Assembly: GCA_002869565.1 (NCBI GenBank)
Contig: PKUJ01000027.1
Span: 34,368-98,367 of the forward strand
Direction of reading: 5' to 3'
Source: Arcobacter sp.
GTDB taxonomy: Bacteria > Campylobacterota > Campylobacteria > Campylobacterales > Arcobacteraceae
DNA length: 64,000 nucleotides
Program-made: the position numbers and the translations under genes
The notes under the pieces: model-generated
What the model was told of the DNA's origin: nothing
The model's input: the letters and a program-made list of their open reading frames with translations, nothing else
The model's database searches: none
Shown here: positions 51,471 to 60,612 of the stretch, piece by piece
Layout of the letters: each line of letters starts with the position of its first letter
Position numbering within the stretch: the first letter of the stretch is position 1

Positions 51471-51504
51471 AAAAAGCTAGATTCTAAGAAATCTAGCTTT
51501 TTTT
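51471..51504. terminator. bidirectional hairpin between pdxH and rtcB
   Basis: AAAAAGCTAGATT-ctaaga-AATCTAGCTTTTT is a perfect 13-bp stem. Confidence 0.65.
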
Positions 51505-52839
51505 ATATTTTTTCCCAGTATTATCTTTGATATTAATAAGTACTTTTACATGGTCTATAATTTCAACAAGATCTTCTTGTAATTTCATAACTTCAAAAAT
51601 ATCTTTATACGCAAAAGGTGCTTCATCAATTGTATTTTCATCAATAGTTCCTTTTATCCCTTTCATACTATCTTTAAACTCTTGCATATTAATATTTGTT
51701 TTAGCTTTTTTACGACTCATTACTCTTCCTGCCCCATGGGATGATGAATTTAATGAATCATTACAACCCTTTCCTATTATTATAAAAGAACCATCTCTCA
51801 TATTTCCAGGTATAACTCCTGTCATATTTTTTTGAGCATCTGTCGCACCTTTTCTATGTATCCATTCTTTTGTGGATTCATTAAATTGGACATGGTTATG
51901 GTTTCTATTAATAAATTTTTTTTCATCTTCATAATCTATTTTAGAATTGCTATTTAAAGTAGAATTTAATATATTATGAATTACATTAATCATCTTTTTA
52001 CGATTTTCAAGTGCATATTCTAAAGCAAAATTTTGATCTTTTATATAATCTTTTCCTAGTTGACTATTGGGGTTAAGTTCCCATGTACCTTCCATTTTCT
52101 CTATATCTATTTTTTTATTAAGCTCTAAAATATTTTTATGTTTTACTTTTAAAAGACTTTTTTGAAAAGCTTCTGGATTATTTGATTTGTATTGTAAATT
52201 TCTTTGTGTGTACTCTTCTACAATTTTTTTTAACTTATCCTCATGTTTATTTTTATCTAGATAGGCTTGAATCATATAGTGTGAAGCAATTTTATGCCCA
52301 AAACCACGACTACCAGAATGTATTACAATCCATACTTTATCATCTTTTCCATATCCAATTTCTATAAAATGATTTCCTCCTCCTAATGTACCCAATTGCT
52401 TAAGTCCTGAGGTATTTAATAAATATTGAGCATAATCCGTTAACGGTAAATCTAATTTTAATGATTGGTGATTTTTGTGAGTTTTAGATCCAAGTGGAAT
52501 CTCTTGAATAATCTTTTCATAAATTAAATCTGCATTTTCTTGTATATCTTTTTTATAAAAATCAGTTTTGTATGCACACATTCCACAACCAATATCAAAC
52601 CCCACAAAGGCAGGTATTACAGCATCTTTTGTAGAACAAACTGCTCCAATTGGCATTGAGTAACCCGCATGAGCATCAGGCATTAATGCTGCATAAGTTA
52701 CAAATTTTTGATTCAATACTTCATAGAATTGTTCTTGTGAAATTTCATCTAATACTTCAGCATAAATTTTATAGTCTGTATGTGTTTCTTGAAATTTTTT
52801 ATGATTAATTTCATAAAAACCAAATTTTTTTAAATCCAT
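51493..52839 (-). CDS. rtcB: RtcB family RNA 3'-phosphate/5'-OH ligase (long paralogue, 448 aa)
   Basis: Has FDIGCGMC, GGGNHFIEIG, HSGSRGFGH and HGAGRVMSR. Confidence 0.85.
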   Translation of the reverse strand: MDLKKFGFYEINHKKFQETHTDYKIYAEVLDEISQEQFYEVLNQKFVTYAALMPDAHAGYSMPIGAVCSTKDAVIPAFVGFDIGCGMCAYKTDFYKKDIQENADLIYEKIIQEIPLGSKTHKNHQSLKLDLPLTDYAQYLLNTSGLKQLGTLGGGNHFIEIGYGKDDKVWIVIHSGSRGFGHKIASHYMIQAYLDKNKHEDKLKKIVEEYTQRNLQYKSNNPEAFQKSLLKVKHKNILELNKKIDIEKMEGTWELNPNSQLGKDYIKDQNFALEYALENRKKMINVIHNILNSTLNSNSKIDYEDEKKFINRNHNHVQFNESTKEWIHRKGATDAQKNMTGVIPGNMRDGSFIIIGKGCNDSLNSSSHGAGRVMSRKKAKTNINMQEFKDSMKGIKGTIDENTIDEAPFAYKDIFEVMKLQEDLVEIIDHVKVLINIKDNTGKKYKKS

Positions 52840-52868: not shown

Positions 52869-52903
52869 ATTATATATTTACCTTTGGTCATATTTTGTCC
52901 AGT
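52869..52903 (-). promoter_or_regulatory. candidate promoter of the long rtcB with an upstream shared 18-nt motif
   Basis: Minus strand: ACTGGACAAAATATGACC, an 11-nt spacer, then TATAAT, about 29 nt before the ATG. Confidence 0.4.
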
Positions 52904-52910
52904 ATAAGTT

Positions 52911-53642
52911 TTAATTTTTAGGCATTTTTTTAAAAGAGAATTTATCAAATCCTTTAGATTGTAGTAAATATTTATCTTCTATTTTTATAGTCTCATTTTC
53001 CATATGATTTATTTCTCCTAGATACATAGAAATTTCTTGAAATGCTTCCATTGGATTTTTTATTTGAATAAATTTATAATTTTTTAGTATGGGATTTGAA
53101 ATATATCTAAATTTTAGTTCAAAACTTTTATACTGTTTTCTCTCAATTTTTTGATAATATTGTTCTGCAACAAAATAGGGTATTTTGTGAAGATTGAAAA
53201 GATCAAATAACCCCTTATATTCAATTTCTTTAAATTCTTCAAAAATTTTATATATGAACTTTGATTTGTCCCATCTATATTTTTGTAGTTGTTCAATTTG
53301 ATTCATATTTAAATGTTTAAGAAGAGAATCGATTATACTTTTTTGAGTAAAACAAAACTCTTCAAAAATTAGTTTTTTCGAATATTGTTTATTCTCTTTT
53401 TTTATTTTATATATCTCAATTTTTATAAATGGATATATCTTACCACAAAATCCTAAGAAATTAAAATAAAATTCTATTTCAAAAAATTTAAAATCTTTAA
53501 TGTAGTTAGTTTTAATAGAGTTTGTTTGTATTTTTATATTTGATTTAATCTCTTTTTCTACTCTATTAAATCTTAATTTTTCATCAATACCATAAGCTAG
53601 ACCTATATCATAATAATCACTAAATTTTGAGATGATTTTCAT
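52911..53642 (-). CDS. hypothetical protein embedded in the rtcB/prfH operon
   Basis: 243-aa ORF. Its ATG overlaps the prfH stop (TAATG). No recognisable motif. Confidence 0.5.
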   Translation of the reverse strand: MKIISKFSDYYDIGLAYGIDEKLRFNRVEKEIKSNIKIQTNSIKTNYIKDFKFFEIEFYFNFLGFCGKIYPFIKIEIYKIKKENKQYSKKLIFEEFCFTQKSIIDSLLKHLNMNQIEQLQKYRWDKSKFIYKIFEEFKEIEYKGLFDLFNLHKIPYFVAEQYYQKIERKQYKSFELKFRYISNPILKNYKFIQIKNPMEAFQEISMYLGEINHMENETIKIEDKYLLQSKGFDKFSFKKMPKN

Positions 53643-54232
53643 TATATTTGTTCCTTAAAATCTGAACCAATAAAGATTTTTCTTGGATTACCTCTTTGTA
53701 TTTCTTTTTTCTTTTTCCATAAAGAGTGTTGAATTCTATTGCTTTGATTCTGTATTTTTTTTTCATATTTTTGAATTAAAAGATCAAGAGCAATGGTTTT
53801 ATTTCTATGTTGACTTCTTTGAGAATATGAAATAGCCTCAATATTAAACTTTGGATAAACAGCTCGTACACCGCTAGATGTTGTATTTACATGTTGCCCT
53901 CCATTTTTTGGACTTTTCATAGTTTGATAAATAACTTCTTTTTTATTAAACTTTTCGTTTTTATTCTCTTCATAATATTCTAATGAAAAATACCAATTCT
54001 TTCTTTTGCATTTAGGTCGAAAAGGACTTGTAGACTTCCAAAGATGTATCCCTTCTAAGTGCTTAAATCGTTTGTCATCACTTTTTAAAAGGATAGATTT
54101 ATAGCAATTGTGAAATGATTTTTCAACTGAGATAATTTCAAAACTATAGTTTTTTTCTAACCACTTGCTAAAATGCCATAATGCTCTACATACTTCATCT
54201 ATGCCATTACCACTACTAATATATATATACAT
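53642..54232 (-). CDS. prfH: peptide chain release factor H-like protein
   Basis: 196 aa. GGQ motif in an RF-1-domain context (SPKNGGQHVNTTSSGVRA) and no codon-recognition domain. Directly downstream of the short RtcB. Confidence 0.8.
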   Translation of the reverse strand: MYIYISSGNGIDEVCRALWHFSKWLEKNYSFEIISVEKSFHNCYKSILLKSDDKRFKHLEGIHLWKSTSPFRPKCKRKNWYFSLEYYEENKNEKFNKKEVIYQTMKSPKNGGQHVNTTSSGVRAVYPKFNIEAISYSQRSQHRNKTIALDLLIQKYEKKIQNQSNRIQHSLWKKKKEIQRGNPRKIFIGSDFKEQI

Positions 54233-54235
54233 CAG

Positions 54236-55297
54236 CTACTCCTTATATGTAAGGATAGGTTTAAATGTAGCGATAACAGTTGCCAGTCCTGCATCTACTA
54301 AATCATTTATAACAACATCAATATTTTTATAAACTTGAGGTGCTTCTTCATAAAGTAACTTTTTATCTTTGCAAAGTACACGTGAACCTATTGACGTACG
54401 CTCTAAACTATCTTTAGTATAATGGTTTTTTAGTTTCTCTTCAGCTGAGCTTCTTTCCCATTTCCTTCCCGCACCATGAGCTAAAGAGTAATTAGATTTT
54501 TTTGTGTCATCTGTTGGCATAACAAGGTAACTGAGAGTCCCTCTACTTCCAGCAATTATAACTGCACCTTTATTTGTAGGAGTTGCACCTTTTCTATGCA
54601 ATAAACCATCTTTTGTTTTTTCAATACTATTGTGTGCTGTATCACTTACATATTTTAAATTAGACTCTAGTTTTATAGCTTTGAGTAATCTTTTTGCTAT
54701 TTGTTGACGACTTTTTTTTGCATATATAATTGCTTTATCATGCTCTTTTAAATAACTACTTGCTTGAGTAATAGATAAACCCTCATTTGGATTGTATTGT
54801 CCAGCTACTTTATCAAATATAATCTGTCCAAATGCACGAGAACCGCTATGAACTAAAGTATAAAGTGAATTTTCATCTAAACTTAATTGTTTAAAAAGCA
54901 TATAATCTTTAATCTCATTTACAAGATGTAACTCAGCAAAATGGTTCCCTTTTCCTATAGTTCCTAAATGGTATCCAAGTGATGGTTCATCTATATCAAT
55001 ATCATCTAAACTTTCTATCTTTGAAAGAGCTTTTACAAATTTTGATACTTTTATTTTTTTAGCTTTTAATGGTACCTCAAATAGGCTCATTCCACATCCT
55101 ATATCTCCACCTATTAGATGTGGATAGATTCTATCTTCTGTTAGTATTGCACTGCCATTAGGGACAAACCCTATACTTAAGTCTGGTAATCCGACTACTT
55201 TTTTTACACCTTTAAATTGTGTAATATTTTTTAATGTTTCTACGCTTCTAGTATCAATCCAGTTTTTCTTTGAAGCGATGATTGTTAAATTGTCCAT
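54236..55297 (-). CDS. rtcB: RtcB family RNA ligase (short RtcB2-type paralogue, 353 aa)
   Basis: Has GGDIGCGMS, GKGNHFAELH, HSGSRAFG and HGAGRKW. There is a 3-nt gap to prfH. Confidence 0.85.
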   Translation of the reverse strand: MDNLTIIASKKNWIDTRSVETLKNITQFKGVKKVVGLPDLSIGFVPNGSAILTEDRIYPHLIGGDIGCGMSLFEVPLKAKKIKVSKFVKALSKIESLDDIDIDEPSLGYHLGTIGKGNHFAELHLVNEIKDYMLFKQLSLDENSLYTLVHSGSRAFGQIIFDKVAGQYNPNEGLSITQASSYLKEHDKAIIYAKKSRQQIAKRLLKAIKLESNLKYVSDTAHNSIEKTKDGLLHRKGATPTNKGAVIIAGSRGTLSYLVMPTDDTKKSNYSLAHGAGRKWERSSAEEKLKNHYTKDSLERTSIGSRVLCKDKKLLYEEAPQVYKNIDVVINDLVDAGLATVIATFKPILTYKE

Positions 55298-55364
55298 TAT
55301 TTCTCCATGGTTTGTTATTTTTGTTTTGTGTATTGTGTTGATTTAGTTTTGTTAATGATTTCAT
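55254..55364 (-). CDS. candidate 36-codon leader ORF overlapping the rtcB2 start
   Basis: AAGGAG lies 6 nt before the ATG. Translates to MKSLTKLNQHNTQNKNNKPWRNNGQFNNHRFKEKLD*. It ends 44 nt inside rtcB2 in another frame. Translation is unverified. Confidence 0.3.
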   Translation of the reverse strand: MKSLTKLNQHNTQNKNNKPWRNNGQFNNHRFKEKLD

Positions 55365-55393
55365 ATGTGACTCCTTATTTTTTTATTGAAAAG

Positions 55394-55428
55394 ATTGTAT
55401 AATATTTTTATGACGTATTCTGTCCAGT
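55394..55428 (-). promoter_or_regulatory. candidate promoter of rtcB2-prfH with the shared 18-nt motif, overlapping a divergent plus-strand -10 box
   Basis: Minus strand: ACTGGACAGAATACGTCA, an 11-nt spacer, then TACAAT. A plus-strand TATAAT at 55398-55403 would place the motif at about +1 to +18 of the WYL operon. Confidence 0.4.
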
Positions 55429-55452
55429 TTTAAATAAAGGGAGTATTTTATT

Positions 55453-55983
55453 TTGAAAACTAAATTTTATCCAGTACACTATAGATTAAATAAAAAGAAT
55501 AGGTATCTTATTTTAGAAATAGATGATGAGAATGAAGATACATTTTATATTGATAAAAAACTTATTAAAATTCCTGTTTTTACAGAATTAAAATTTTTAA
55601 AACAATATGCAAAAAAAAGAGATATAAAAGTGGTAAAAGACTCTGAACCTATAGTGCATAATTTAGACATAGTTTTGAAATGGATAAAAAAGAATGCTAA
55701 AGGTAAAATTGAGTGTACAGACATCTTAACTGTTTGGAATTTTTTTATTGATATGGCAAATACTTTTGAGCTTGATAATGATGAATTACAAGCATATCGT
55801 AGTAAAGCTGTAAAAGCATATAAAGTATATGAAAAAGTTTTTATTGGCACGAATTTACCTAGTGTAACTCAAAATAATCCACCATATCACCCAAAATTCA
55901 ATTCAAAAGAGTTAAAACTTATTCAAAGAGTACTTACTTATGGATATAAAAAATTTAAAAAGAAACGAATAAAAATAAAATGA
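55453..55983 (+). CDS. hypothetical protein (first gene of the WYL operon)
   Basis: 176-aa ORF with a TTG start. AAGGGAG lies 9 nt upstream. Confidence 0.5.
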   Translation: MKTKFYPVHYRLNKKNRYLILEIDDENEDTFYIDKKLIKIPVFTELKFLKQYAKKRDIKVVKDSEPIVHNLDIVLKWIKKNAKGKIECTDILTVWNFFIDMANTFELDNDELQAYRSKAVKAYKVYEKVFIGTNLPSVTQNNPPYHPKFNSKELKLIQRVLTYGYKKFKKKRIKIK

Positions 55984-56303
55984 AAAACATCCTATTCATT
56001 TGTAGCCGTAACCAATGGCGAAGTCCTACGGCTGAGAAAATATATAGCAAAGATGATCGTGTCAATGTTCGCTCGGCCGGAACAAGTCCAAGTGCAAGAA
56101 AAACAGTCAATGTGAAAGATATAGAATGGGCAGAACTTATTTTCGTGATGGAGCACAAGCATAAAGAGAGGCTTAAATCTACCTTTTCTAGACAACTACA
56201 ATATAAAAAAATTATTGTCCTTGATATTTCTGATGAGTATCGGTATATGGATGAAGAATTGGTAAAATTGTTAAAAACATCAGTAGAGGAATACTTAAAA
56301 TGA
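55980..56303 (+). CDS. small low-molecular-weight phosphatase (LMW-PTP/ArsC fold) family protein
   Basis: CX5R(S) loop ILFICSRNQWRSPTAE. 107 aa. Overlaps both neighbours by 4 nt. GC is visibly higher than the surroundings. Confidence 0.7.
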   Translation: MKNILFICSRNQWRSPTAEKIYSKDDRVNVRSAGTSPSARKTVNVKDIEWAELIFVMEHKHKERLKSTFSRQLQYKKIIVLDISDEYRYMDEELVKLLKTSVEEYLK

Positions 56304-56848
56304 AAAATATCCCAACAGAAACTTTATTGGAAAATTTCGCTCAATGTGTTGATGATGAAGAAAATTCTAAATACAATAAAAATCGTAGATACTTAAATGC
56401 TAAAAAAAGACGTATAGAATATGAACTTAAAAGTCGTGGTTTTGAAAAATGGCAGATATCTGAAAAGGCTGATGAAATTATCAAAGAGCGTGAAAGTGAG
56501 GCAGTAGAATCCAATGATGAGTGGATTATGCCATCAAAGAAAAATCTCAAATCACGTATCATGTATATAGAATATAAAGGTGGTGGCATATTGGGTGATG
56601 GACGTATAGGTAGAGTTTATTTTTCTAAGTCTGGTAAAAGCTTATATTATGGCGATAAACGATTTTCTAGTTTAAAAGGTAATGGATACAAATCTAATTA
56701 TTATGATGTAGATACAGGGGAAGAATACTGGATTAGTGGTTTCAAAAAAAATCAAAGTGACAAACTCTATGGTGGCAATAAAGGTGTTGAAATAGATGAT
56801 GATGTCAAAGAAGAGTATTTAGATATCATAAATGGAAAAAATAATTGA
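56300..56848 (+). CDS. hypothetical protein
   Basis: 182-aa ORF. The conserved-looking C-terminal half is GRIGRVYFSKSGKSLYYGDKRFSSLKG..YYDVDTGEEYWISG. No family name known to me. Confidence 0.5.
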   Translation: MKNIPTETLLENFAQCVDDEENSKYNKNRRYLNAKKRRIEYELKSRGFEKWQISEKADEIIKERESEAVESNDEWIMPSKKNLKSRIMYIEYKGGGILGDGRIGRVYFSKSGKSLYYGDKRFSSLKGNGYKSNYYDVDTGEEYWISGFKKNQSDKLYGGNKGVEIDDDVKEEYLDIINGKNN

Positions 56849-57759
56849 GCCAAAAATCTAGACTATACCGAACCATCGAAATCCTAAAAGAGCTAAATGC
56901 CGGTAAAAAACTTTGTGTAACTAATCTAGCTACAGCATATGAAGTAAGTGATAGAACTATACGAAGAGATTTTGAACTTATAAAAGAGATTTTTGGGGAC
57001 TTTGTGAGCAAAGAGGGGGAGTGTTATCAAGCGTATCAAAAAGTGTTGCTTGAAGAGGTGCTAAATGCTACAGATTTGATGACATTAGCAAATATAGTCA
57101 ACTTGTTTGGTATTACACAAAAAGAGTCTCTTATCTCTGATAAAACAGAGGCACTAATAAAGCAGTCAATGAGTGTATATGACTTTAAATCTCGCCCTTT
57201 TGAGAGTATGAAGAATATTGATATAATAAAAAAACTTGAACATGCAATTAAGTTTAATAAAGAGATAAAAGTAATATATCAAACAGAAAGATCAAATACA
57301 AAAAGAACATTTCATCCTTATAAGATACTTTTTTTAAATGAAAATTTTTATTTAGTTGGTGAAAATATTTCAAAAAATTGTTTTGAATTTTTAAGAATAT
57401 CAATGATTGTAGAGCTTATATTTACAAAAAGAACATTTCATGAACATTTGGATATAAAAGAGTTTATAAAAAAACTTCAAACACCCTGGGCTGCCTTTGG
57501 AAATAATGATATTATTGTAAAACTTAGAGTTGATGTAAAAATAAGAAGATTTTTTTTATTTAAAAAATATCTTCCAAGTCAAGAGATAATACAAACTTTT
57601 GAAAATGGTGATATTCAAGTAAATTATACGGTAACTAATTTGCGAGAATTAGATGAGTTAGTTATAAAATGGCTTCCTAAAATACAAATAATAAGTCCAA
57701 AAGGACTTGAAAAAATGATTAAAAAGAAGTTGCGGCTTAAATTGAAAGGATTTAACTAG
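56845..57759 (+). CDS. HTH + WYL domain transcriptional regulator
   Basis: N-terminal wHTH (LYRTIEILKELNAGKKLCVTNLATAYEVSDRTIRRDFELI) and a WYL core (FHPYKILFLNENFYLVGE). TTG start overlaps the upstream stop. Confidence 0.8.
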   Translation: MSQKSRLYRTIEILKELNAGKKLCVTNLATAYEVSDRTIRRDFELIKEIFGDFVSKEGECYQAYQKVLLEEVLNATDLMTLANIVNLFGITQKESLISDKTEALIKQSMSVYDFKSRPFESMKNIDIIKKLEHAIKFNKEIKVIYQTERSNTKRTFHPYKILFLNENFYLVGENISKNCFEFLRISMIVELIFTKRTFHEHLDIKEFIKKLQTPWAAFGNNDIIVKLRVDVKIRRFFLFKKYLPSQEIIQTFENGDIQVNYTVTNLRELDELVIKWLPKIQIISPKGLEKMIKKKLRLKLKGFN

Positions 57760-57769
57760 TTCATAAGAT

Positions 57770-58246
57770 TTATTTCTTATGACCAGTTTGTCCTTTTCTT
57801 TCAAGTAATTCTTCACAATTTTCTCCACCTATATCATAAGCTTCTCCGAATCCAAAGATTGCTTCACCTGATTTTGGTGTAAATTCATAGATAGAAAAAT
57901 CTTTCATACTCTTTAGCATTTTCATTGTTGAACCTTGCTCTTTTTCAAAAATTGATATTAGATTATCAAATTCTTTAGTATCTCTTGGTAGTTTTACTGA
58001 TGTTGATTGTAAAACAACTCTTTTTCTTCCAAAGATATTTTCGCATGAAATTTCATCTTCTATAAAAAACAAAGCAACATTATTGTTTGCATCTAAGTTT
58101 CTTGTATGTCTAGCCATAGCGCTAATATAAACGTAGTATTTATTCTCATTTTTTATAAATGGTGCATAACTTGTAAATGGCAGATTATCTTCATCTATTG
58201 TTGATAAAACTACACTTTTGAAATTTTTTAAAAATTCTTCTAACAT
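57770..58246 (-). CDS. PNPOx-like FMN-binding split-barrel protein (HugZ/HutZ-like)
   Basis: LSTIDEDNLPFTSYAPF...VALFFIEDE pattern. Start chosen at MLEEFL (GGGAGG 7 nt upstream), whose ATG overlaps the upstream TAA (TAATG). Confidence 0.65.
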   Translation of the reverse strand: MLEEFLKNFKSVVLSTIDEDNLPFTSYAPFIKNENKYYVYISAMARHTRNLDANNNVALFFIEDEISCENIFGRKRVVLQSTSVKLPRDTKEFDNLISIFEKEQGSTMKMLKSMKDFSIYEFTPKSGEAIFGFGEAYDIGGENCEELLERKGQTGHKK

Positions 58247-60612
58247 TATATTTCCTCCCATAATAGAGATATTTTAACATTATAAATATCTTTTCTCCTT
58301 AGTTTTATGAAAGTCTCTTCAATTTCATAGTTCGAGATATGATACTCTTCATTGATTTTTTTAATTTCATCTTCAAGTTTTTCTTTTAGGTTTTCTATAT
58401 CTGCTGAAATTTCTTCTATTTCTGCTTCAACAAAAGCTACATCTTTTTTCTCTTTTAAAACTTTTGATACATTTTTTACCCCACTTGCTGCTTTACCTAC
58501 ATTTGTTTTACTTAATATTGAGTTACCAAAAAAAGCCCCTAATATTGAGGAACCAATAGAAATAAGTGTATCAGTTGTTTTGGCACTTGCCTGATCTTTC
58601 TCTTTTTCTAATTTAACATATAATCTATCAAGTTTTGTTTCTAAGCTATCTTTTTCTTTTTCATACTTTAATTGAAGTTTTTCGATATTTTCATCAATTG
58701 CTTCATTTAATCTATCTTGTACTCTAATTTTAAAATCTGCTAAGTTCTCATCTTGTTTTGAGGTGAGTTTTAATGCAGAAATTGTATGTAAGGTAAGTTT
58801 ATGATTTTGATATATTAAATTTATAAATTCTCTTTGTAAAGATTTTAATTCTCTAGCATTTTGAACAAAAGTAGGAATATTATAGTATGAAGAGTTTGCT
58901 CTTTCATTTTTTGAAAAATCAAAATTTTCTAGTTCTTCTTTATCCTCCCAATTAACATTTGAATCTGTTTCATCTAAATATATTTTATGTAAAATCTGTT
59001 TTTTTACATCTATTTTTTTTGTTGCATTATAAAAATTTAAATCACAAGAAGCAAGTAAGTATGGCTGCATTTGATAAGAGTCTTGTTGTGAAATATATGA
59101 AAAATTTTCTTCTAAATCATTTGGTAAAATAGGTTTACTTGATGATGAATCATTTGTATTTGTTTTATTTGATGAAGTTGCTACAACTTCTGGTTTTTTT
59201 AAAGCCTTAGCTATTTTATCTGCCATAAGTTTTTTAATATCATCTTTTGAAATAGGACCTTTTAAATATGATAAAACCCATCTAGTTTGAAATACTTTAA
59301 TAGCATCTTCATGAATATTTTTCATAATAAAGTTTCTTTTATTTAAGTTTGAAAGCATATCCATTAGCTCTTTTTTATCAAACTTTACCTTTCCACTTGT
59401 TGCTAATCCATCTATTACTTTCTCTTTATCTTGTTTTGTTTGAAGACGTCCAATGAACCAAGTACCAATGTTTGCTAAACCTTTATAATCTATGTCCACA
59501 GGGTTTTGAGTTGATAATATAACTCCAACTCCAAAGGATCTAGCTTGTTTTAGAAGTGTAAGCATTGGCTGTTTTGATGGGGGATTTTTTGAAGGTGGAA
59601 AATAGCCAAATATTTCATCCATATAAAGTAGGGCTTTAAGGGAAGAAGTTCCCTCTTGTCTTCTCATCCAGGCAACCATTTGATTTAGTAATAGTGATAC
59701 AAAAAACATTCTTTGTGAATCATTTAGATGTGAAATAGAGAAAATAGAAACTCTTGCTTTTCCATTTTCATCATATAATAAATTAGAGATATCTAAAGGC
59801 TCTCCCTCAATCCAAGACTTAAAAGATGGATTTGCAATAATTGTATTTAGTTTTAGTGCAAGTTTTAATCTATCATCTTGTGCAAAAAATGTCTCTAAAT
59901 CAAATACTCCAATTTTTTTAAAAGGAGGAGTAACTATTGAAGAGATTAATTCTTCCAGATTTAAATCTTTTCCTTGGCTATAAAAGTTCATAAAAATAGA
60001 AGATACTAAAATATGCTCTTTTGACGATGTATTATCTTTGATATCCACAAGTGATAAAAGTGAAGATACTGTTGAATTAACAAGCTGATTTAAAATATCT
60101 GCATCTTCTAACACCTCTTTTGAAGGAGCTTTAAAAGAAGAAAGAACAGAAACAGGAACACCTGCTGTACTTCCTGGTGTATATATTGTAAAATCAGCAC
60201 TATTTTTTAGTTTAGAAATTCTCTCTTTACTTTGAAAGTCACCAGTGATTCCATTTTCCCACAAAGTTGCAGTTTTTTGTGCAAGTTCAGCTTTAGTCAT
60301 AGAGTTATTTATCGCGTCTTGTTCTTCAACCCACGGTTCAAAATCACTTCCTTTTAACTCTGGAAAAGTTAAAAGGAGGTTCCCCATATCTCCTTTTGGA
60401 TCAATTATAATTGAAGGTATATTATCAATAGCAGCTTCTTCAAGTAGTGAAATTCCAAGCCCAGTTTTCCCACTTCCTGTCATACCAATTATTGCAGCAT
60501 GTGTAGTTAAGTGTTTGTTTTTATATATAACTGGGATTGATTCTTCATCATTGATTTTTTCTTTTCCTATATAAAAAAGTTTTAATTTTTCATAATCAAA
60601 TGTGCTACTCAT
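58246..60612 (-). CDS. HerA/FtsK-superfamily P-loop NTPase (DUF87/DUF853-like) with long coiled-coil C-terminal extension
   Basis: Walker A IIGMTGSGKTG, Walker B ALLYMDEIFGYF, plus ILSTQNPVDIDY. The C-terminal ~300 aa are coiled-coil with one hydrophobic segment. Confidence 0.7.
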   Translation of the reverse strand: MSSTFDYEKLKLFYIGKEKINDEESIPVIYKNKHLTTHAAIIGMTGSGKTGLGISLLEEAAIDNIPSIIIDPKGDMGNLLLTFPELKGSDFEPWVEEQDAINNSMTKAELAQKTATLWENGITGDFQSKERISKLKNSADFTIYTPGSTAGVPVSVLSSFKAPSKEVLEDADILNQLVNSTVSSLLSLVDIKDNTSSKEHILVSSIFMNFYSQGKDLNLEELISSIVTPPFKKIGVFDLETFFAQDDRLKLALKLNTIIANPSFKSWIEGEPLDISNLLYDENGKARVSIFSISHLNDSQRMFFVSLLLNQMVAWMRRQEGTSSLKALLYMDEIFGYFPPSKNPPSKQPMLTLLKQARSFGVGVILSTQNPVDIDYKGLANIGTWFIGRLQTKQDKEKVIDGLATSGKVKFDKKELMDMLSNLNKRNFIMKNIHEDAIKVFQTRWVLSYLKGPISKDDIKKLMADKIAKALKKPEVVATSSNKTNTNDSSSSKPILPNDLEENFSYISQQDSYQMQPYLLASCDLNFYNATKKIDVKKQILHKIYLDETDSNVNWEDKEELENFDFSKNERANSSYYNIPTFVQNARELKSLQREFINLIYQNHKLTLHTISALKLTSKQDENLADFKIRVQDRLNEAIDENIEKLQLKYEKEKDSLETKLDRLYVKLEKEKDQASAKTTDTLISIGSSILGAFFGNSILSKTNVGKAASGVKNVSKVLKEKKDVAFVEAEIEEISADIENLKEKLEDEIKKINEEYHISNYEIEETFIKLRRKDIYNVKISLLWEEI

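Follow-up and report, generated by a model that had tools for sequence, protein, structure and literature searches.

Do four tightly overlapping genes that face an RNA ligase and release-factor operon form one fixed system with it, or are they held together in some looser way? The question is raised by a locus in a 64,000-nucleotide (nt) stretch of Arcobacter sp. DNA (GenBank assembly GCA_002869565.1, contig PKUJ01000027.1, positions 34,368 to 98,367 of the forward strand), referred to hereafter as the window. Its four plus-strand genes encode a 176-amino-acid (aa) protein (g176), a 107-aa mini low molecular weight (LMW) phosphatase (g107), a 182-aa protein (g182) and a helix-turn-helix (HTH) regulator with a WYL domain. 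They stand opposite genes for two RtcB-family RNA ligases (rtcB448 and rtcB2), a PrfH-like release-factor homologue and a 243-aa protein (g243). An initial annotation, made from the sequence of the window, had described the four genes as one operon and, together with the facing genes, as an eight-gene unit of which the WYL protein might be the sensor. We favour, with moderate confidence, a modified view of the locus, as an RNA/ribosome-repair island that is regulated locally through repression by the WYL protein, carries shifting cargo and belongs to Campylobacterota (Arcobacteraceae and Sulfurovum relatives).

The gene calls of the initial annotation were sound. The four open reading frames (ORFs) have exactly the coordinates it gave, with 4-nt overlaps at all three junctions, and the hidden Markov model searches that it proposed matched LMWPc (PF01451), HTH_11 and WYL, in agreement with its domain assignments. 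The regulator matched the Pfam models HTH_DeoR (30.8 bits), HTH_11 (25.3 bits) and WYL (32.0 bits, cut-off 21.8, E 1.2e-7), the PADLOC WYL model (E 8e-18) and, just under the cut-off of 23.9 bits, WCX (22.3 bits, E 1.7e-4). Scans of the island gave no further PADLOC match, only families of unknown function in PHROGs and no Rfam or tRNA match; a Pfam scan of g176 and g182 found nothing.

Relatives of the locus were gathered through g182 (558 species matched, 80 loci kept), g176 and g107 (80 metagenome loci), and all eight window proteins were mapped onto the loci obtained. About 30 Campylobacterota-like loci, mostly from hydrothermal metagenomes but including Sulfurovum (L002) and Halarcobacter (L001), have a common frame. 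One strand carries rtcB448, with or without g243, and/or g243-prfH-rtcB2; the other carries a co-directional array that is closed by the WYL gene. WYL orthologues (66-78% identity) close every related array. Between the promoter and the WYL gene, at least 14 gene families are exchanged. Only some arrays have g176, and the g176-g107 pair is found in about eight loci; a g182 domain precedes g107 in L095 and L097, and Sulfurovum L002 has a g182 domain and the WYL gene without g176 or g107. Otherwise the cargo includes proteins matching HEAT_2, DUF6891 or Sel1, a number of small proteins that are secreted or lie in the membrane, and further unknowns. HEAT_2, Sel1, DUF6891, DUF1835/DUF3658 and zf_Tbcl were the only Pfam matches among the cassettes, and a literature search for DUF1835 immunity found nothing. 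The most constant cargo gene is g107, nearly always present in these loci, most of which were chosen through it. In L082 the array is retained although the repair genes have been deleted to a remnant.

The fixed four-gene operon and eight-gene unit thus did not survive the comparison, since cargo is exchanged among so many families and homologues of g176 and g182 outside the clade stand alone, with unrelated neighbours. Two features of individual loci may be recorded here. The scar of the L082 deletion is a 57-codon minus-strand ORF (579-752) in which the first 39 residues of rtcB2 run on into the last 28 of g243. A Band_7/SPFH protein, absent from the window island, is encoded after the WYL gene in Sulfurovum (L002 9770-10891) and in several metagenome loci (for example L111 10712-11866).

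Alignment of the regions upstream of the arrays revealed a candidate operator, defined from the same loci in which it was later counted. Its 14-nt pattern, GWCRTATTYTGTCC, has exactly two matches in the 64-kb window, both perfect; no copy with one or two mismatches occurs there, and 100 shuffles gave no match. One copy lies at the divergent promoter between the array and rtcB2-prfH, the second in the 71-nt spacer upstream of rtcB448. In 1.64 Mb of related and unrelated loci there were 39 perfect matches, all on the array strand and all in these two promoter contexts. None was found in about 130 unrelated loci, including those of Pseudoalteromonas, which have no WYL gene. No other DNA-binding protein is encoded throughout the locus set, which makes the WYL protein the obvious candidate to bind this operator. 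The recurrence of the motif at the same two positions in related genomes lends computational support to the earlier proposal that the WYL protein regulates the RNA-repair genes.

The operator keeps a constant place in both contexts. The array promoter is made up of the -10 box, 8 nt, the 14-16-nt operator TGACGTATTTTGTCCR, about 12 nt and the Shine-Dalgarno site of the first cargo gene, and the 8-nt distance is maintained in 28 related promoters, which belong to the WYL gene's own transcription unit. All nine rtcB448 upstream regions consist of the operator, 9-11 nt, TATAAT, about 23 nt, and AAGGAG with an ATG; read in this direction the operator is CGGACAnnATAYGACC, and it is kept at rtcB448 even where other genes part rtcB448 from the array. 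A promoter scan also gave a minus-strand sigma70-like site (55426..55399) with its -35 element, TGGACA, inside the operator, and the predicted -10 box of this divergent rtcB2 promoter is the array -10 box read on the opposite strand. The two divergent promoters can therefore be occluded through a single operator. As a separate observation, the promoter-plus-operator unit is duplicated within one array, before different cassettes, in L095 (77-91 and 391-405) and also in L108 (1287). The duplicated units are preceded by GGTCACACCTACG, and such flanked duplications may mark a route of cassette insertion.

These features suggest an island with three constant parts. The first would be the HTH-WYL-WCX regulator, the second a control module of about 120 nt, in which two -10 boxes stand back to back and are accompanied by one 14-16-nt operator (TGACGTATTTTGTCCR) and a candidate leader ORF, and the third one or both of the repair modules rtcB2-prfH(-g243) and rtcB448(-g243). 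The regulator gene appears to close a translationally coupled array begun at the control module, so that any gene inserted between the two would come under the same control; in the window this slot holds g176, g107 and g182. A WYL dimer would occupy the operator, which covers the predicted +1 to +16 at the array promoter and the -35 region at the rtcB2-prfH and rtcB448 promoters, and because of these positions the bound regulator would repress all three. A damage-derived nucleic-acid ligand, most plausibly cleaved RNA, would bind the WYL domain and release the repression. Repression is favoured by the position of the operator over +1 to +16 of the regulator's own promoter and by analogy with BrxR and CapW, characterized single-chain HTH-WYL-WCX regulators of accessory systems that are cited as repressors in PMC11888443. 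A bolder version of this scheme, which we put forward tentatively and hold to be possible rather than probable, is a WYL-sensed 'ribotoxin-damage regulon'. RNA fragments would derepress the two RtcB ligases, PrfH and the plug-in array; the phosphatase would be a third repair component, healing a dead-end RNA end or dephosphorylating the ribosome or a translation factor, and the leader ORF would act as a second sensor through ribosome stalling.

Of the cargo genes, g107 is the most likely to work with RtcB2-PrfH and is a candidate accessory factor of ribosome repair. It matches LMWPc PF01451 (32.9 bits, cut-off 23.2, E 8.5e-8) over residues 4-40 only, corresponding to profile positions 1-44 of 144. 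Among 50 homologues the C, R and S of its loop CSRNQWRS (C8-SRNQW-R14-S15) are at least 95% conserved. A motif LDI(P/S)DEY, aligned by neither HMMER nor the PDB alignment, is also conserved in these homologues, and its D82/D85 could supply the general acid. The family numbers 2,932 matches, named 'low molecular weight protein tyrosine phosphatase family protein' or 'predicted protein tyrosine phosphatase'; the latter group we take to be COG4551. The closest solved relative is the Bacillus subtilis arginine phosphatase YwlE (1zgg, E 1.2e-5), in the N-terminal part only. ArsC-type chemistry would need a second Cys, and g107 has none. In all probability the protein is a phosphomonoesterase that depends on Cys8 and has an RNA end or a phosphorylated translation component as its target. 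It might strip a blocking phosphate from a dead-end RNA end, or dephosphorylate a ribosomal or translation protein.

The earlier proposal that the mini-phosphatase is linked to RtcB/PrfH is supported by Pseudoalteromonas spp., where rtcB2, prfH and an LMWPc gene are co-directional and the phosphatase gene is third, after an 8-nt gap (for example strain BZK2; WP_187491105, RtcB2; WP_187491103, phosphatase). This locus is a second, differently organized association of g107 with the same repair module. Convergent to it runs a Band_7-RtcB-RtcA-CCA/HD nucleotidyltransferase-RlaP operon, in which the Band_7/SPFH gene precedes RtcB. The Pseudoalteromonas mini-phosphatase (106 aa) and PrfH (212-220 aa) fall into one 90% cluster of the protein collection (the cluster of P0412-P0426). 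A check for a phosphatase-PrfH fusion found none, the cluster representative being a plain PrfH. The joint cluster thus seems to be an artefact of clustering, to which a chimeric gene call may have led, and not a natural fusion. Relatives of g107 with 36-39% identity also occur in megaphages (LR756504.1, 397258-397590, and two other 'uncultured phage' records of about 630 kb); in the one record examined, no RtcB or PrfH was found within 10 kb of the phosphatase. The 125-aa gene that follows the R. albus phosphatase gene was tested as a g182 domain and is not one.

The region from 55980 to 57100 had been described as GC-rich and probably acquired horizontally. The enrichment is real, with a GC content of 0.330 against a window mean of 0.280 (standard deviation 0.027 in windows of equal size; 97th percentile) in a genome of 28% GC, but it is modest, other stretches of the window also attain 0.34, and it comes chiefly from g107 alone. 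The GC content at third codon positions (GC3) of g107 is 0.315, compared with 0.154 +/- 0.026 in 41 long ORFs (z = 6.1); z is 1.6 for the g182 and WYL genes, and the GC3 of g176 is under average. GC content alone was too weak as evidence of transfer, and GC3 and a break in synteny were used instead. The closest complete genome is that of Halarcobacter sp. FB10N2-1, in which a 4.1-kb block from prfH to the WYL gene (window 53621-57728; L001 5323-9428) has 89% nt identity with the window. The FB10N2-1 copy sits between suf genes (sufBCD) and mla-like genes; the flanks of the two copies have nothing further in common, and no integrase or transposase is visible in them. The block stands in unrelated surroundings, and the island therefore moves as blocks, with its cargo exchanged. 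Together, the GC3 of g107 and the differing chromosomal context of this block uphold horizontal acquisition. The identity of g107 to Pseudoalteromonas and Hahella proteins (62-66%), with its aberrant GC3, suggests that it was acquired from a higher-GC, possibly gammaproteobacterial, source.

The two orphan proteins, g176 and g182, are best described as independent and swappable accessory cargo. g176 is 100% identical to a protein of a metagenome-assembled genome named Arcobacter sp. In a word-indexed search it gave 16 matches and looked clade-restricted; a profile search found 801 cluster representatives of like length, which belong to no Pfam family. Its AlphaFold2 model (predicted local distance difference test score (pLDDT) 94.6, predicted template-modelling score 0.90) matched the C-terminal domain of SatS in Foldseek (6drq, E 1.9e-5, probability 1.0, template-modelling score 0.56-0.58), and this predicted fold points to a protein-binding role. 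Four distant g176 homologues were examined; all had unrelated neighbours and none had the phosphatase alongside. Profile and sequence searches of PDB sequences gave no match for g176, g182 or the WYL protein.

g182 consists of a clade-specific three-helix N-terminus and a C-terminal domain (about 100 aa) whose identity across phyla is 60-70%. This domain occurs in at least 558 species, usually as a stand-alone protein of 110-130 aa, and is often mislabelled '1-deoxy-D-xylulose-5-phosphate synthase' (DXS) in NCBI records (for example P0049, P0063 and P0114; L036); the misnomer may stem from a dxs gene that adjoins it in three loci. In P0050 the domain is fused to DUF6714. No conserved neighbour of the domain was found among 80 loci, and the phosphatase was near it in three of them. 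The exceptions are Hahella sp. CCB-MM4, in which the phosphatase gene is directly upstream, and Hahella sp. NBU794, in which RtcB is 1.4 kb off. The g182 model has a pLDDT of 88, and a fold search against PDB and BFVD gave nothing under E 0.05, with scattered weak matches to PH domains. The label 'PH-like' was rejected as an impression of topology, the fold matches being too weak.

Several points weigh against a WYL-repressed repair island. The related loci were anchored on g107, g176 or g182, so that the constant company of the WYL gene is a biased observation; the operator was counted in the loci that defined it; and it is not a clear palindrome, unlike the expectation for a dimeric HTH protein. 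Campylobacterota promoters often have no -35 element, so the position of the operator fails to decide between repression and activation, and WYL activators of the PafBC type act from a position directly before the -10 box. As regards the phosphatase, the Pseudoalteromonas loci form one closely related group (phosphatase at least 95% identical) and amount to one independent event, and the neighbours of most other g107 family members are unrelated genes (in Pantoea, P. aeruginosa, R. albus, an enterobacterial fragment and about 25 metagenome loci). RtcB requires 3'-phosphate or 2',3'-cyclic phosphate plus 5'-hydroxyl ends, and a plain RNA phosphatase is therefore without an obvious place in the pathway.

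The promoter data bear on two alternatives. The WYL protein might be an activator of the PafBC type that binds just upstream of the rtcB448 and rtcB2-prfH -10 boxes. With its ligand bound, it would make up for the missing -35 contact and bring in RNA polymerase, the array site serving only for negative feedback. In each of the nine rtcB448 promoters, 9-11 nt separate the end of the operator from TATAAT and a canonical -35 element is absent, and PafBC is an established WYL activator, bound to RNA polymerase (PDB 9fnd). In the regulator's own promoter, however, the same site covers +1 to +16, where a repressor classically sits, the WYL protein has no sequence similarity to PafBC chains, and BrxR and CapW are, as cited in PMC11888443, repressors. 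We judge activation unlikely, if by no means negligible. Alternatively, the adjacency may have no regulatory meaning: the motif would be a promoter- or recombination-associated element, or the site of an unlinked regulator, and the WYL protein would at most regulate itself. The absence of a palindrome agrees with this, as does the duplication of promoter and motif with cassettes in L095, which could reflect a recombination hot spot. However, the motif is confined to loci that encode a WYL orthologue, stands in fixed register to two different -10 boxes and is kept at rtcB448 despite intervening genes, which makes this explanation improbable in our view.

Other alternatives concern the cargo. 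According to the initial annotation, the four genes would be one obligate system that processes RNA ends jointly, in a fixed eight-gene unit with the facing operon. This could account for the 4-nt overlaps at all junctions, the recurrence of the same six-gene block in Halarcobacter sp. FB10N2-1 at 89% nt identity, the eight or so g176-g107 pairs and the pairing of g107 with a g182 domain in Hahella sp. CCB-MM4. Most related arrays, however, lack g176 and/or g182 or have another order (g182 before g107 in L095 and L097), Sulfurovum L002 combines a g182 domain with the WYL gene in the absence of both g176 and g107, and the phosphatase accompanies only 3 of 80 g182-domain loci and 0 of 4 distant g176 loci. 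The comparative data largely refute the obligate system, and we hold it to be very improbable. A poly-immunity or resistance locus has a better claim, although we regard it as doubtful. In that case g176, g107, g182 and the alternative cassettes would be independent orphan proteins that give immunity to interbacterial or phage toxins or act as their antidotes, placed beside ribotoxin-countering RNA-repair genes under one WYL switch, and none would take part in RtcB/PrfH chemistry. The shuffling of at least 14 unrelated small families, many of them repeat, membrane or signal-peptide proteins, resembles the variable architecture of polymorphic-toxin immunity arrays. g176 and the g182 domain are widespread as stand-alone proteins whose surroundings are variable or mobile (HigB/HTH, group II intron reverse transcriptases, insertion sequence elements), and the predicted g176 fold is protein-binding and chaperone-like. 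WYL regulators commonly control defence systems (PADLOC WYL match; PMC11888443), and RtcB2-PrfH is itself an anti-colicin device (PMC9223846). Yet no cassette matches a known Imm family or a PADLOC model, no toxin gene is nearby, the 60-70% identity of the g182 domain across phyla is far above that of typical immunity proteins, and the Pseudoalteromonas phosphatase lies inside an rtcB2-prfH operon without any array.

Table 1. Coordinates of the array, its control elements and the facing repair genes in the window.
Feature	Position	Strand	Description
g176	55453..55983	+	176-aa SatS-C-like alpha/beta protein (predicted fold); optional cargo
g107	55980..56303	+	107-aa mini LMW protein tyrosine phosphatase-fold phosphatase; C8-X5-R14-S15; conserved LDIxDEY
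g182	56300..56848	+	182 aa; three-helix N-terminus (6-70) and beta-rich C-terminal domain (~78-177); optional cargo
HTH-WYL-WCX transcription regulator	56845..57759	+	304 aa; terminal array gene in every related locus
Operator copy 1 (GACGTATTCTGTCC)	55412..55425	+	8 nt downstream of array -10 box
Operator copy 2 (GTCATATTTTGTCC)	52887..52900	+	antisense to rtcB448, just upstream of rtcB448 -10 box
-10 box of array promoter (TATAAT; TGGTACAAT in relatives)	55398..55403	+	kept in 28 related promoter regions
-10 box of rtcB448 (TATAAT)	52869..52874	-	assigned by sequence
rtcB448	51493..52839	-	second RtcB-family RNA ligase, 448 aa; own promoter; Pfam RtcB E 4.5e-85
g243	52911..53642	-	243-aa unknown; 1-nt overlap with prfH stop; phrog_4243 E 5.7e-18, full length
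prfH-like release-factor homologue	53642..54232	-	196 aa; GGQ present by eye
rtcB2	54236..55297	-	PrfH-coupled RtcB ligase, 353 aa
Candidate leader ORF (MKSLTKLNQHNTQNKNNKPW...)	55254..55364	-	36 codons; strong AAGGAG Shine-Dalgarno site; hypothetical

The facing genes (Table 1) form two repair modules. rtcB2 matches NF007153 (419.3 bits, cut-off 407) and TIGR03073 release_rtcB (374.4 bits, cut-off 271.8) and lies directly upstream of prfH on the same strand, with a 3-nt gap (54236 / 54232). The PrfH-like protein has an RF-1 domain (E 7e-15, 55.4 bits, cut-off 35) and is without domain 1; its best match is TIGR03072 prfH (E 2.9e-40), at 138 bits under the cut-off of 166.65. Orthologues of rtcB448 (61-63% identity) adjoin the WYL array in Sulfurovum L002 and in L084. 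g243 repeatedly accompanies RtcB448/PrfH, occurring in at least 14 related loci, and is an uncharacterized candidate member of these RNA-repair modules.

The candidate leader ORF begins some 70 nt before rtcB2 and extends 44 nt into it. In 19 distinct sequences, whether before rtcB2 or before g243, it keeps its Shine-Dalgarno site, its ATG and an open frame (MTHIFTKPNRQTQEQTKQR... in relatives). A coding test gave a weak codon-position signal (synonymous versus non-synonymous changes 202/1515 in frame, 122-157 out of frame), and the region could alternatively be a conserved A/C-rich leader and not an ORF. If real, a stalling-sensitive leader before a ribosome-rescue operon would be of interest. 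Directly downstream of the WYL gene, on the minus strand, a PNPOx-like 163-aa gene (57770-58261) overlaps by 16 nt the end of a gene (58246-60612) for a 788-aa HerA/DUF87-type ATPase with a long coiled-coil C-terminus. This may be another accessory or defence-type pair; it is not common to the related loci.

To our knowledge, RtcR, with its CARF domain, is essentially the only bacterial regulator for which the sensing of RNA damage is understood. With a compact operator and a WYL regulator at this locus, the range of WYL sensing would come to include RNA or ribosome repair in addition to DNA damage and phage defence. The candidate third gene of the ribosome-repair module is available in cultivable Pseudoalteromonas, and the cargo of the plug-in slot provides a list of candidate RNA-repair or toxin-resistance partners that includes two large orphan families, the SatS-C-like proteins (about 800 cluster representatives) and the DXS-mislabelled domain (at least 558 species). 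The parts of the island are known ones: RtcB2-PrfH (PMC9304027, PMC9223846), a WYL regulator (PMC4012209) and an LMW-fold phosphatase. What appears new is a WYL regulator, not a CARF/RtcR one, wired by one operator to two RtcB modules, together with the plug-in array and the mini-phosphatase companion of rtcB2-prfH. We found no paper that links WYL to RtcB/PrfH or an LMW phosphatase to PrfH, nor a description in the literature of a third gene, accessory factor or dedicated regulator of RtcB2-PrfH; Burroughs and Aravind (2016, Nucleic Acids Research) may hold an earlier description.

The cargo proteins with recognizable relatives depart from them in several ways. Like other LMW phosphatases (PF01451; YwlE), g107 has an N-terminal CX5R(S) P-loop followed by AGT and 'VMExxH' segments. 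Unlike them, it has 107 aa in place of about 150 (full domain about 140-160 aa), and LDI(P/S)DEY appears to take the place of the C-terminal DPYY acid loop. The predicted g176 fold is similar to the C-terminal domain of SatS, an export chaperone of the SecA2 pathway in Mycobacterium tuberculosis (6drq/6dnm; PMC6333443), whereas the identity is 11%, with no sequence-level relationship, and g176 is a single-domain cytoplasmic protein with no SecA2 context.

The regulator shares with the WYL factors BrxR, CapW, DriD, PafBC and the YafY type the order HTH, WYL and WCX, a gene that lies within the unit it would control, and a candidate operator in its own promoter. It differs from them in having no detectable sequence match to any solved WYL regulator, in an operator that is a non-palindromic 14-16-mer, and in its putative targets, which are RNA/ribosome repair and variable cargo and not BREX, CBASS or a DNA-damage regulon. 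The nearest regulatory parallel is RtcR-rtcBA, in which a CARF-AAA+ sigma54 activator senses tRNA fragments with 2',3'-cyclic phosphate (PMC7790460); in both cases an RNA ligase operon is placed under a divergent, ligand-sensing local regulator, and CARF and WYL have been described together as ligand-binding regulator domains (PMC4012209). The island, by contrast, has an HTH-WYL-WCX regulator, sigma70-type -10 boxes and predicted repression in place of enhancer-type activation, and no CARF/sigma54 activator or RtcA is encoded among its eight genes and the four flanking ORFs scanned. The closest relative of the repair genes is the RtcB2-PrfH module of Escherichia coli ATCC25922/CFT073 (PMC9304027, PMC9223846, PMC1586002), which experimentally rescues and repairs ribosomes cleaved by colicin E3 (PMC9304027, PMC9223846). 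As in that module, a coupled rtcB of the release-factor-H type lies upstream of a release-factor homologue that lacks domain 1 and has a GGQ. Unlike that module, the island has a PrfH-like protein whose score falls under the TIGR03072 cut-off (138 versus 166.65 bits), and it adds cargo genes, a WYL regulator, g243, a second RtcB and a candidate leader ORF.

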